Shown here: positions 1 to 2,329 of the stretch, piece after piece
Layout of the letters: each line of letters starts with the position of its first letter
Numbering within the stretch: the stretch's first letter is position 1
Assembly: GCA_031459535.1 (NCBI GenBank)
Contig: JAVKIJ010000055.1
Span: forward strand, 1 to 21,267
Source: Candidatus Fervidifonticultor quintus
GTDB lineage: Bacteria > Sysuimicrobiota > Sysuimicrobiia > Sysuimicrobiales > Humicultoraceae
Direction of reading: 5' to 3'
Length of the DNA stretch: 21,267 nucleotides
Made by a program: the position numbers and the translations under genes
The notes under the pieces: generated by a model
What the model saw: only the letters and a program-made list of their open reading frames with translations
What the model was told of the DNA's origin: nothing
Database searches by the model: none

Positions 1-20
1 CGGTACTCTTTGGTCGGCAT
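1..20 (-). CDS. Possible 5' end of a gene running off the left edge (MPTKEY...)
   Basis: ATG at 20-18 on the minus strand, open to the window edge and lying just downstream of the 33-52 palindrome. No SD seen and too short to identify. Confidence 0.25.
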
Positions 21-52: not shown

Positions 53-120
53 CTGTCCAAGACCGATTTCTCGGACAGGCTCCTAGCGCAGCGCCTCGCG
101 TTCACCCGGCCCACAAACGC

Positions 121-152
121 GAAGAAACGGCGGAACTTCCCGCCGTTCCTCC
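121..152 (-). terminator. Putative intrinsic terminator downstream of the Lys-rich micro-ORF
   Basis: Minus-strand RNA AACGGCGG-GAAGUU-CCGCCGUU (perfect 8-bp stem, 147-140 with 133-126, extendable with G-U pairs) followed by UCUUCGCGUUUGU. Starts about 25 nt after the TAG at 173. Confidence 0.6.
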
Positions 153-172
153 GAGGGGCAAGCGCAGGGCGG

Positions 173-217
173 CTACTTGCCCTTCTTCTTCGCGGCCTTC
201 TTCGCCTTCTTCGCCAC
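173..217 (-). CDS. 14-aa basic micropeptide MAKKAKKAAKKKGK
   Basis: AAGGAGG SD (232-226) 8 nt upstream of GTG (217-215), TAG stop at 175-173, all eight Lys codons are AAG, terminator-like hairpin follows. Confidence 0.65.
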   Translation of the reverse strand: MAKKAKKAAKKKGK

Positions 218-388
218 CGTCCTCGCCTCCTTCTCCTGGAAGATGGACGGCAGGAGCTTGCCGTCGCATACCCGTTCGATACCAGATGTAGTTTCTCCTG
301 CTGGTCGAGACACAAATTCTTGTCCTGAACCTGGTTCTCTTCCACTGACCTGGAGGGAGACCGCGCGATCCGCCAGAATTCGCCAGAG

Positions 389-2329
389 GTGCTGCGTCGC
401 ATTGGGCCTCCTGCCATCGCCGCCCGCGGCTGCGCCGCGCTCATGCTGGTGGCGGTGGGCTTGGTACTCCCGGCGCGGGCGCAAGCGACCGACATTGCCG
501 GGCACTGGGCCGAAGACGAGATCCGTTCGTTGATCGCTCGCGGTATCATCGCGGCCAACGCCGACGCCGCGTTCCGGCCCGACGAACCGGTGAGCCGCGT
601 CCAGTTCATCGCATGGCTGGTCGCGGCTCGAGGGTGGCCCGCTATCAGGCTGGGAGCAGCGCCGTTTCCCGACGTGCCTCCCGGCGGTGCAGCCGCTGCG
701 GCCGTCGAGACCGCTGTGGCCTACGGTATCGTGCAGCCCGGTGGCCACTTCCGTCCCGATGCGGCGCTGCTGCGCGGGGAGGCATTTGTCTTCCTGGTCC
801 GCGCGCTCGGATACACGTTCGAAACCGGATACATGTCCAACGCCGCGCTGCCGTTTGGAGATGTTGATGGGCTGCCGCCGCCGGTGCGCGGCGCGATCGC
901 GGTGGCTGTCCTCTCGGCGCCGCCGTTGCTGCGTGAACCGCCCTCCGATCGGGTGCGCCCACAGGATCCGATGACCCGCGCCGAGGCTGCCAGCCTGGTG
1001 GCAGGGTATCTGCGCGCCATCGAGCGCGGGCTCTCGCTCACGTTCACGGTGCCGCTGGGCCCGGGTGTCACGCTGATTCTGGAGAAGCGCGGCGCGCTAC
1101 GCGCGCTGCCGGTGTGGCGGGTGCAGGTGGGGTCGTTCCAGGACGAGGAGCGCGCGCAACGCCTGGCGGACGCCATGCGGGCGCGCGGCTTTCCCGTGGT
1201 GATCGATCAGCAGGACGAGGTCTACAAGGTGCGCGTCGGCAGCTTCGCCACCCGCCAGGAGGCCGCCGCGCTCCAGGCGCGGCTGGCGGGCGAGGGCCTC
1301 GCCACCTGGGCGATCCTCACGGTGCACGACTACGACGCGCTGCCGGGCCCGTTCTGGACCGGCGCGCTCCTGATCGAGCCAGCGGGCGGCGCGCGCCTGC
1401 GGCCATCGCTGGCGCGCGAGACGGTCATCGGGAGAGGACGGACCAGTGAGGTCGCGCGGCGGGCCGGTGCCATCGCTGCCATCAACGCCGGTTTCTTCGC
1501 CAGCACGGGCGACCCGCTGGGATGCCTAGTCATCGACGGCGAGGTGATCAGCGAGCCGCTGCCCAACAGGACCTGCGCGGGCATCACCGACGACGGCCAG
1601 GTGCTCTTCGATGTGCTGCGGCTGGATGCGTCGGTCTCCGGCGCGCACGGCACCGTGACCATTGACGGGGTCAACCGCGAGCGCGGCGCCAACGAGATTA
1701 TCCTGTACCGGCCGGCCTACGGACCGTCGACGCGAACCAACCAGTTCGGCGCCGAGGTCACCGTGGTCGGTGACGTGGTCCAGAGTGTGGCCAACGGCCG
1801 CGCCAACACCGCCATCCCTCCTGACGGTTACGTGCTGTCCGGCCACGGCCGCGGGCGGGCCGCACTGCTGGCGGCACTGCGTCCGGAGAGCCGCGTGGCG
1901 CTGCGCGTACGGCTGGTGCCTCAGGGCGGCGATCCCCGATGGGAGGAGGCGCGGCAGATCATCGGCGGCGGACCGCGTCTGTTGCAGGGCGGGCAGTTCG
2001 TCGGGGGGGAGGGATTTCGATCGGGGTTCGCAGACCGGCGTCACCCTCGCACGGCCATCGGACGCCTCGCCGACGGTCGCATCCTGCTCATGGTCGTCGG
2101 TGGTCGCCAGCCCTACCACAGCCTGGGGATGACGCTGCCCGAGCTGGCCAGCCTCATGCGGCAGTTGGGCGTAACCGACGCCCTCAATCTGGACGGCGGC
2201 GGGTCCTCCACCCTGGTGGTGCGCGGTGCGGTGATCAATCTCCCGTCGGATGAGACCGGAGAGCGCCCGGTGAGCGACGTACTGCTGGTGCTGCTGCCCG
2301 CAGCCGGGTCGCGTCTGGGAGGCCACTAG
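389..2329 (+). CDS. Secreted S-layer homology (3x SLH) + SPOR + phosphodiester glycosidase (NAGPA/DUF2233) domain protein
   Basis: Signal-peptide-like N-terminus (basic, hydrophobic, ARAQA). SLH repeats DIAGHWA..FRPDEPVSR, FPDV..FRPDAALLRGEA, FGDV..RPQDPMTRAEAA. SPOR-like WRVQVGSFQDEERA..YKVRVGSF. NAGPA motifs AINAGFF, HPRTAIG, ALNLDGGGSS. Confidence 0.88.
   Translation: MLRRIGPPAIAARGCAALMLVAVGLVLPARAQATDIAGHWAEDEIRSLIARGIIAANADAAFRPDEPVSRVQFIAWLVAARGWPAIRLGAAPFPDVPPGGAAAAAVETAVAYGIVQPGGHFRPDAALLRGEAFVFLVRALGYTFETGYMSNAALPFGDVDGLPPPVRGAIAVAVLSAPPLLREPPSDRVRPQDPMTRAEAASLVAGYLRAIERGLSLTFTVPLGPGVTLILEKRGALRALPVWRVQVGSFQDEERAQRLADAMRARGFPVVIDQQDEVYKVRVGSFATRQEAAALQARLAGEGLATWAILTVHDYDALPGPFWTGALLIEPAGGARLRPSLARETVIGRGRTSEVARRAGAIAAINAGFFASTGDPLGCLVIDGEVISEPLPNRTCAGITDDGQVLFDVLRLDASVSGAHGTVTIDGVNRERGANEIILYRPAYGPSTRTNQFGAEVTVVGDVVQSVANGRANTAIPPDGYVLSGHGRGRAALLAALRPESRVALRVRLVPQGGDPRWEEARQIIGGGPRLLQGGQFVGGEGFRSGFADRRHPRTAIGRLADGRILLMVVGGRQPYHSLGMTLPELASLMRQLGVTDALNLDGGGSSTLVVRGAVINLPSDETGERPVSDVLLVLLPAAGSRLGGH

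Follow-up and report, generated by a model that had tools for sequence, protein, structure and literature searches.

A stand-alone micro-gene for a lysine-rich peptide, a putative nucleic-acid polycation, kept in the hot-spring lineage of Candidatus Fervidifonticultor quintus

Results and discussion

Contig JAVKIJ010000055.1 of Candidatus Fervidifonticultor quintus (21,267 nt, analysed at its full length and called the window below) carries near its first end, on the minus strand, an open reading frame (ORF) of 14 codons whose product, MAKKAKKAAKKKGK, has lysine at 8 of its 14 positions and consists of little else but lysine and alanine. As judged from comparison with related genomes, this micro-ORF is an unannotated, stand-alone gene kept across a hot-spring lineage, and we regard it as very probable that the micro-gene is real. 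The peptide would be a free polycation that probably acts on nucleic acids, a role suggested by analogy. The complete statement, mechanism included, runs from a self-contained expression unit through a selected peptide to a free polycation that binds nucleic acids without specificity, and our confidence in it is somewhat better than even.

The window is the whole of one contig of a metagenome-assembled genome (G000; 3.1 Mb, 68.7% G+C, 88.85% complete). In the NCBI taxonomy Fervidifonticultor is placed in the family Humicultoraceae of Ca. Sysuimicrobiota (CSP1-3), and in the description of that phylum the genus is listed for chemoautotrophic enrichments from hot springs (PMC11604079). Below, f1 denotes the family of the source genome and f2 a sister family within the same phylum.

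Conservation of the micro-gene as coding sequence

The micro-ORF is divergent from a gene encoding SLH, SPOR and NAGPA domains, an arrangement noticed in an earlier sequence-only reading and confirmed here. A DNA search of 40 relatives recovered the 161-nt unit at 16 loci with 82 to 94% DNA identity; across f1 the neighbouring SLH-SPOR protein is just 53 to 69% identical at the protein level. When the region upstream of the SLH-SPOR gene was scanned for Lys-rich micro-ORFs wherever that gene was found, one was present at 29 of the 30 loci in f1 and at 16 of the 17 in f2. The positive f1 loci include the unpublished genomes G022 and G013, without which the count is 27 of 28. The miss in f1 (L070) is a fragment at a contig end from a genome whose copy lies on another contig (L025), and the one in f2 (L100) is a locus of 122 nt only. 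Upstream of the SLH-SPOR gene no Lys-rich micro-ORF was found in f5 (0/10), f7 (0/1) or f3 (0/1).

The pattern of substitutions is that of a translated frame. In an alignment of 21 distinct f1 sequences (A2, one of them from G022), 13 distinct ORF DNA sequences encode only three peptides and the peptide is unchanged in 18 of the 21. Third codon positions vary at 8 of 13 sites and first and second positions at none of 26 (Fisher P = 2e-5, a value overstated as kin are not independent, although the period-3 pattern is plain nonetheless). Insertions and deletions within the ORF measure 3 or 9 nt, and thus comprise whole codons, whereas those in the leader 5' of the start measure 1 to 4 nt. All eight variable third positions fall among codons 2 to 11; those of codons 12 to 14, which form the 5' arm of a hairpin around the stop codon, are frozen. 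Because of the period-3 substitutions, the whole-codon indels and the occurrence of the identical peptide at a locus with unrelated flanks (see below), selection is considered to act on the peptide, and on this comparative evidence the micro-ORF is under purifying selection as coding sequence at one chromosomal position in two families. Locus-1 peptides range from 10 to 17 aa.

The sequence-only reading had proposed a real micro-gene and had asked whether related genomes keep a Shine-Dalgarno sequence (SD), ORF and hairpin with synonymous changes. The f1 alignments (A1, with 23 sequences, and A2) contain this combination, and the proposal is borne out by the synonymous-only substitutions, the whole-codon indels and the second locus, where the same peptide has other codons and flanks.

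Such frames are rare in the genome itself. A scan of all six frames of G000 for ORFs of at most 40 aa with a Lys content of 35% or more and no fewer than four Lys returned two matches, the micro-ORF and a paralogue, MAKAKKAAKKKGR, on contig C2, each with an SD and a terminator. The codons following the GTG start are GCG AAG AAG GCG AAG AAG GCC GCG AAG AAG AAG GGC AAG; all eight Lys codons are AAG, the preferred Lys codon of the genome (89% in long ORFs). The sole further Lys run in any frame is a KKKKKK C-terminus (...CPSCGYYAGREVIAVESARSKKKKKKES) on the minus strand of contig C134, in a frame that resembles ribosomal protein bL32 as judged from its CPSCG motif alone.

A longer in-frame upstream frame (up to 191 aa) was also considered as coding. 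It was rejected because relatives have 1- to 2-nt indels between the SD and the start and because it runs antisense to part of the SLH gene.

A second locus with peptides of the same composition

The paralogue (locus 2) comes after a threonine-aldolase-like gene and faces an outer-membrane-like gene in convergent orientation; the C-terminal sequence only served to name these two. By tblastn of the flanking ORFs these neighbours are common to f1 (G012, G017), f5 (G036, G039), f7 (G030) and f3 (G026). Of 18 regions examined for locus 2, 11 held an oligolysine ORF with an SD, and locus 2 was not found 3' of the threonine-aldolase-like gene in three f2 and two f4 genomes. The oligolysine genes occur in one or two copies. 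In two f1 genomes locus 2 encodes exactly the peptide of locus 1 from other Ala codons (Table 1).

Locus-2 peptides are 11 to 20 aa long in f1, consist of K, A, G and R (one with T) and are always in frame; in f5 and f7 the same position is occupied by AKKA-repeat proteins of 29 to 30 aa. At locus 2 the short f1 genes are shrunken counterparts, in position, of longer Lys-repeat genes. The variants at both loci are all built from K, A, G and R; a few also contain T or, at locus 2, S and P. From this drift in length and residue order it appears that charge and flexibility are selected, and not a fold or a specific contact.

The terminator core of locus 2, GAGCACUGC..GC[A/G]GUGCUC (instance GAGCACUGC..GCAGUGCUC), hardly varies among f1 genera (loci L140-L149 and L151), with a close variant in the f7 genome G030 (L121). 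The preceding peptide meanwhile varies from 11 to 30 residues.

Architecture of the expression unit

On sequence features the micro-gene is a self-contained expression unit, in which a promoter-like block is followed by some 55 nt of leader, a strong SD, the 14-codon ORF, a stop-codon hairpin and a terminator (window 315..111; Table 1). The SD, its 8-nt spacing from GTG, the Lys/Ala peptide and the TAG codon were all described in the sequence-only reading and can be read directly from the minus strand. That reading had also described an 8-bp perfect hairpin with a U-rich tail. The hairpin is present (AACGGCGG, 147..140, with CCGCCGTT, 133..126) and forms the core of a 14-bp stem; the U tract, which in relatives is richer, is modest in the window. 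The site nevertheless has the G+C-rich stem-loop and following U tract, ending a transcription unit, that define a rho-independent terminator, and a pattern-based scan also calls one on the minus strand (149..132).

Table 1. Features of the micro-gene unit, its neighbour and the oligolysine peptides of loci 1 and 2. Coordinates are window positions unless another contig is named; the micro-gene is on the minus strand, hence the descending numbers.
Feature	Position	Strand	Details
Promoter-like block	315..285	minus	TTGTGT 315..310, 19-nt spacer, TACATC 290..285 (TATAT[G/A] in most relatives)
Motif TGGTATCGAAC	284..274	minus	TGGT[A/G][G/T]CGAAC in relatives; near-invariant in A1
5' leader hairpin	265..246	minus	GACGGCA 265..259, 6-nt loop, UGCCGUC 252..246
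Tentative SD/start-hiding helix	251..216	minus	GCCGUCC 251..245 with GGACGGU 222..216; CUUCC 242..238 with GGAGG 230..226; minimum-energy fold
Shine-Dalgarno AAGGAGG	232..226	minus	8-nt spacer CGAGGACG to start codon; identical in 23/23 sequences of A1
Micro-ORF	217..173	minus	GTG 217..215, 13 codons, TAG 175..173; product MAKKAKKAAKKKGK
Stop-codon hairpin	182..156	minus	GGGCAAGU 182..175 pairs with GCUUGCCC 163..156; RNAalifold consensus
Intrinsic terminator	153..111	minus	14-bp stem 153..140 with 133..120, 6-nt loop, tail CGUUUGUGG 119..111
SLH-SPOR-NAGPA gene	389..2329	plus	divergent neighbour
Locus 2	G000 contig C2, about 52707-52748	minus	MAKAKKAAKKKGR; SD GGGAGG, GTG start, TAG stop, hairpin terminator
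Locus-1 peptide, most of f1			MAKKAKKAAKKKGK
Locus-1 peptides, other f1 genera			MAKKAKKAKKKGK, MAKKAKKKKGK, MAKKKAAKKKKGK/R, MAKKKAAKKKGKR, MAKKKKAGKKKK, MAKKATKKKAGGKKKGR
Locus-1 peptides, f2			10-12 aa; MAKKKAKKKR/K, MAKKKAKAKKKK, MAKKKAAKKKKK/R, MAKKKAKGKKKK, MAKKKGKKKK, MARKKAKGKKKK
Locus-2 peptide, G012 and G020 (f1)	loci L046, L052		MAKKAKKAAKKKGK exactly; ATG start, other Ala codons, unalignable flanks
Locus-2 peptides, other f1			MAKKAKKAKKKGK, MAKKKAAKKKGK, MAAKKKAAKKKGK, MAKKAAKKATKAKGKKKKGR, MAKKKAAKKKR, MKKKKAAKKKK, MKKKAAKKKGK, MAKKAKKGKKK
Locus-2 peptide, G017 (f1)			MKMGAKKKGGKKKGK, or MGAKKKGGKKKGK from inner start
Locus-2 peptides, f5			MAAKKAA[S/G]KKATAKKTSAKSTAKKSAKKKR, MAAKKAAKKATAKKTSAKKTAKKAARKKR
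Locus-2 peptide, G030 (f7)			MAAKATAKKAAAKKAPAKKAAAKKATKKKK

The promoter-like block is kept in the 23 orthologues of A1 and in f2, occurs once in the genome and extends in the f1/f2 consensus to TTGTGT-N19-TA[T/C]AT-N-TGGTA[G/T]CGAAC. It is probably a promoter with its transcription start, and the motif TGGTATCGAAC probably sits around that putative start. All f2 leaders begin GCGAAC, and in genus g3 the motif is in tandem duplicate. When the leader motif and hairpins were sought genome-wide as a regulon or repeat element, they proved to be confined to the oligolysine loci.

Downstream, sequence conservation ends at the terminator. The next long frame 3' of locus 1 is on the opposite strand (that is, convergent) in most f1 relatives with readable flanks, and in the five loci scanned with Pfam it encodes an acyl-CoA dehydrogenase (5/5). 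In the window the end of an insertion sequence lies about 30 nt past the terminator, at the place of this convergent gene in relatives, and accounts for the contig break at this end of the window. The first 87 nt of the window belong to a stretch of 86 to 113 nt of which the genome has 10 further occurrences, all but one no more than about 40 nt from a contig end. Here a minus-strand ATG (20..18) opens a MPTKEY... frame that is continued on contig C47 and that we take to resemble the N-terminus of an IS5/IS1182-type transposase.

The divergent neighbour encodes a protein of 646 aa in which two SLH repeats are joined to SPOR and NAGPA (phosphodiester-glycosidase) domains, an unusual cell-wall-anchored combination. 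The protein was found in 66 of the 94 genomes of the class and in f1 and f2 is always divergent from the micro-gene. The window has no tRNA genes.

Structure of the untranslated regions

The transcript would contain several conserved helices. Folding of 44 orthologous leaders predicts a hairpin of the form GACGGC(A)-loop-(U)GCCGUC, with a loop of variable length, in 43; the exception is L080, whose folded stretch has other hairpins. This leader hairpin is invariant within f1, and in f2 its sixth pair covaries (C:G in 12 of 16, U:A in 4 of 16). Compensatory changes are present at 6 of the 14 pairs of the terminator. The stop-codon hairpin has eight pairs, seven of which never vary; 100% of its cells are paired but there is no covariation, so that the counts speak neither for nor against it. 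Its 3' arm lies within an 18-mer, CCGCCCUGCGCUUGCCCC (172..155), that is nearly invariant in f1. For the three helices together 98.9% of cells are paired, compared with 39 to 55% when the partners are slid, and the observed value for cells changed on both sides was reached by none of 500 shuffles. In the consensus fold the stop-codon hairpin and the terminator are separate helices.

The tentative helix across the SD and the start codon, which it would hide, has a pair probability of 0.94 at 37°C and of 0.35 to 0.57 at 55 to 65°C. It is predicted in f1 only, where it may gate translation. As a conserved feature at family level it was rejected, since its pairs do not covary, G019 lacks it and the f2 leaders are not predicted to form it.

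No Rfam family matches anywhere in the window at its gathering score, and at E ≤ 1 over 90-340 there were just two microRNA models, far below threshold on the terminator hairpin and due to chance.

Evidence from RNA libraries

The RNA data are assembled contigs, which carry neither transcript ends nor strand nor level. Of 20 runs with part of the stretch 3 are on record as RNA, and the comparison covered three RNA runs (X4, X19 and X20) and one DNA run (X1). Among the contigs of X4, a metatranscriptome that comes from the same study, one of 780 nt derives from a close relative and covers window 116-268, and another is exact over 281-834. X19, a metatranscriptome of sludge, contributes a single contig of 151 nt that spans 175-299 with five differences. 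RNA pieces from soil (X20) were rejected as evidence: they match the Lys-coding core only (about 179-215) and come from other Lys-rich genes.

Relation to described families

Profile tests were run on the 29- to 30-aa relatives from locus 2, the 14-mer being below the 20-aa minimum of the tools. L121, the 30-aa protein that is orthologous by position to the paralogue, stayed far below every cut-off, with 11.2 bits for HC2 (PF07382, cut-off 40), 11.4 for NF038053 (cut-off 80), 9.7 for NF038052 (cut-off 135) and 13.9 for Rv3852_fam (cut-off 100). The other two relatives scanned had no H1-like match in Pfam or NCBIfam, none of the 29- to 30-aa relatives matched a ribosomal family at E ≤ 10 in either database, and five of them had no exact match in a collection of 15 billion proteins. 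A search of the ESM Atlas with a 30-aa relative gave only unnamed clusters of 'hypothetical protein' (29 to 38 aa); the nearest named cluster, with HC2 in 17% of its members and a score of 0.89, serves as a lead only. In the literature (full text, supplementary lists outside scope) the peptide strings were unmatched and nothing relevant to lysine-rich small ORFs of bacteria was found, and what is reported on H1-like proteins concerns known long proteins only. From these searches, the oligolysine unit fits no described Pfam, NCBIfam or Rfam family nor one found in print, in line with the suggestion in the sequence-only reading that the family may be undescribed.

The nearest known systems are the H1-like proteins (Hc2/HctB PF07382, NF038053 hist_H1_lk_Burk and AlgP), which share the composition and the AKK/AAKK periodicity of the peptides and which, with Rv3852_fam, received the only weak matches of the 30-aa relative. 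Length changes through gain or loss of repeats also recall Hc2, for which such changes are reported (PMC2848022). The differences are those of size and construction. The micro-peptides have 10 to 30 residues compared with about 100 to 240, their scores of 9.7 to 13.9 bits contrast with cut-offs of 40 to 135, and there is no DNA-binding or partner domain in a unit that is smaller than many small RNA genes. An H1-like array of Lys-rich pentamer repeats exceeds 100 aa; locus 1 reaches 10 to 17 aa and locus 2 reaches 11 to 30 aa. The sequence-only reading had compared the peptide both with H1-like tails and with the small ribosomal proteins bTHX and eL41. The former comparison gains strength from the AKKA-repeat proteins of 29 to 30 aa that are the paralogue's orthologues by position. 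The latter is weakened because free variation in length (10 to 30 aa) and sequence is unlike what a fixed rRNA pocket would demand.

Proposed role of the peptide

Methionine is usually removed before alanine, which would leave a peptide of 13 residues with eight lysines. Such a peptide would be small, soluble, free and disordered, selected for charge and flexibility and not for sequence. It could bind polyanions electrostatically without sequence specificity (rRNA and ribosomes, other RNA, nucleoid DNA), coating and neutralizing them. Its action would thus resemble that of a long polyamine or of the Lys/Ala tails found on some ribosomal proteins and, as H1-like tails, fused to many bacterial proteins, but as a free molecule.

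Several points weigh against this proposal. Nucleic-acid binding by the peptide is putative, and an unstructured peptide of 13 residues could be short-lived in the cell. The evidence for expression is weak, as contigs from RNA libraries cannot show a transcript, and a strict sigma-70 scan (spacer of 16 to 18 nt) of the micro-gene region calls no promoter. The minimum-energy fold of the f1 unit hides both the SD and the start codon. Furthermore, untranslated parts (the hairpin of the leader, the TGGTAxCGAAC motif and the 18-mer that follows the ORF) are conserved at least as well as the ORF, which a function of the peptide leaves unexplained and which leaves room for a function of the RNA. The genome also has a spermidine synthase and two ordinary HU genes, and hence no obvious lack of small polycations or nucleoid proteins; for the same reason the idea that the peptide replaces missing polyamines or nucleoid proteins is unsupported.

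Alternative explanations

That the frame is a chance ORF in intergenic DNA has a negligible probability: it is very short and G+C-rich genomes abound in spurious frames, such as those of 190 to 191 aa that overlap it, but the rarity of such frames in the genome scan, the orthologue matches, the synteny, the codon pattern and the second locus exclude this origin. A lysine-sensing leader peptide, in which stalling at the eight Lys codons controls read-through to a downstream gene, is suggested by the Lys-codon run followed by a terminator, by the two hairpins 3' of the ORF (one including the stop codon) and by the likeness of a short ORF rich in one codon to the amino-acid attenuator leaders of the his, trp and thr type. 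Those leaders precede a gene in the same direction, whereas here no co-directional gene lies directly downstream: the next gene is convergent in most relatives with readable flanks and at locus 2, and in the window its place is taken by the insertion sequence, so that there is nothing to attenuate and gene order already largely refutes the idea. Restriction of the residues to K, A, G and R (T, S or P in few) would also not be needed in a pure codon sensor, and this explanation is very improbable. The functional product could instead be an RNA, alone or together with the peptide, that is, a small RNA of about 160 nt, possibly of dual function, whose C-rich 3' segment or hairpins act on targets. 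Unusually high conservation of the untranslated regions, for example of the 18-mer and the leader hairpin, the locus-2 terminator sequence that hardly changes across families and a fold somewhat more stable than that of shuffled sequences (z = -2.5) favour such an RNA. It fails to account for the period-3 substitutions, the whole-codon indels and the same peptide encoded between unrelated flanks; no Rfam family fits, and neither f2 nor locus 2 keeps the 3' segment. We hold an RNA function to be quite unlikely.

The peptide might be a bona fide ribosomal protein bound in a single, defined pocket of the rRNA. Very short polybasic proteins of the ribosome are known (bTHX, bL37, bS22 and eL41) and, as with the micro-gene, are extremely basic products of stand-alone genes that gene callers often miss. 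The strong SD, as found for other small ribosomal protein genes, the invariance of the peptide within most of f1 and the extension of uL4 in Gemmatimonadota that ends in the same decapeptide (see below) are in keeping with this. However, the known proteins are Arg-rich, of fixed length and with conserved specific residues. The micro-peptide varies freely in length (10 to 17 aa at locus 1, 11 to 30 aa at locus 2) and in order, is built of K, A, G and R only (T in few) with no aromatic or otherwise specific residues, is encoded by one or two copies and has 29- to 30-aa relatives that match no ribosomal family. A ribosomal protein would be expected to keep its length and sequence throughout the lineage; 18 of the 21 aligned f1 peptides are identical, yet residue order differs even within one genus (g1). 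A dedicated ribosomal protein is thus unlikely. Finally, the polycation could act on another polyanion or outside the cytoplasm, for example on cell-wall polymers handled by the SLH-SPOR-phosphodiester-glycosidase neighbour, on polyphosphate or on membranes. The divergent linkage to the SLH-SPOR-NAGPA gene, kept across two families, points in this direction, as does the organization of polyphosphate granules by the H1-like protein AlgP (PMC9239181). Against export, there is no signal peptide, for which 14 residues would leave no space, and no transporter gene was seen among the adjoining ORFs; the neighbours of locus 2 are, moreover, entirely different. Polyphosphate is disfavoured as a partner because PPK1 (PF02503) and PPK2 (PF03976) were not found in six genomes, namely G000 (89% complete) and G003, G008, G012, G058 and G028 (97 to 100% complete). 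A target of this kind is distinctly improbable, and the free nucleic-acid polycation remains the preferred account.

Similar tails and micro-genes beyond the lineage

The pattern AKKAAKKKG[K/R]-stop occurs in 27 stretches among 185,579 species genomes, and as it selects a low-complexity decapeptide its matches are leads and not evidence of homology. Seventeen of the 27 are Sysuimicrobiota copies of locus 1 or locus 2. In three metagenome-assembled genomes of Acidobacteriota the pattern is part of an SD, an ORF for MKKTAKKAAKKKGK and a hairpin (L032 5511-5552, plus; L033 394-435, plus; L037 1999-2040, minus), with only synonymous differences within the ORF and with unrelated neighbours. A Planctomycetales metagenome-assembled genome has a 29-codon ORF with its own SD (L029 2814-2900, minus) for MCNCCGCTPAKKKKAAPKKAKKAAKKKGK, which carries a Cys-rich head on an oligolysine tail and has a sub-threshold match to a HypB N-terminal prefix model (E = 0.039). 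From its sequence this product may be a metal-binding micro-protein.

Five Gemmatimonadota proteins (L038, L039, L043, L049 and L053) have C-terminal tails that end in the motif, and they are encoded 5' of a gene that begins like uL23. The one at L038 (6929-7831, plus) is uL4 (PF00573, E = 1.3e-61), extended by some 70 aa rich in K and A that end AKKAAKKKGK; the other four are read from their tails and the gene that follows. One Chitinophagaceae protein also has a tail ending in the motif. The uL4 tail is a polycation appended to a nucleic-acid machine, and its final ten residues before the stop are the last ten of MAKKAKKAAKKKGK, an identity in low-complexity, pattern-selected sequence that does not indicate homology. 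It differs from the micro-peptide in being fused to a folded domain. By analogy, the extension offers a lead that K/A tails may work on ribosomes.

Conclusions

The oligolysine unit is a real micro-gene whose kind has no description in the literature searched, and may be seen as a variant on the theme of histone-H1-like or polybasic mini-proteins. The comparative case is unusually clean, with a period-3 pattern, an identical peptide at a second locus, synteny in two families and variants that extend to AKKA-repeat proteins of 30 aa. Genes this short fall under the size limits of gene callers and their products are destroyed in trypsin-based proteomics, so a whole class could be missing from annotations.

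A much broader and tentative proposal, which we think somewhat unlikely to hold in full, is that free oligolysine peptides of 10 to 30 residues are a widespread unannotated class in bacteria and archaea, expressed from strongly signalled micro-genes as an encoded counterpart of polyamines or as 'free histone tails'. They would serve as bulk counter-ions and stabilizers of ribosomes, RNA and DNA, and in the present lineage would be encoded at two loci. At one of these, a conserved and structured leader could adjust translation according to temperature or to how much of the polycation is present. If the peptide is indeed an abundant polycation, it would bear on how nucleic acids are neutralized and stabilized in thermophiles and other bacteria, on unassigned densities and charges in preparations of ribosomes and nucleoids, and on how histone-H1-like tails arise or shrink.

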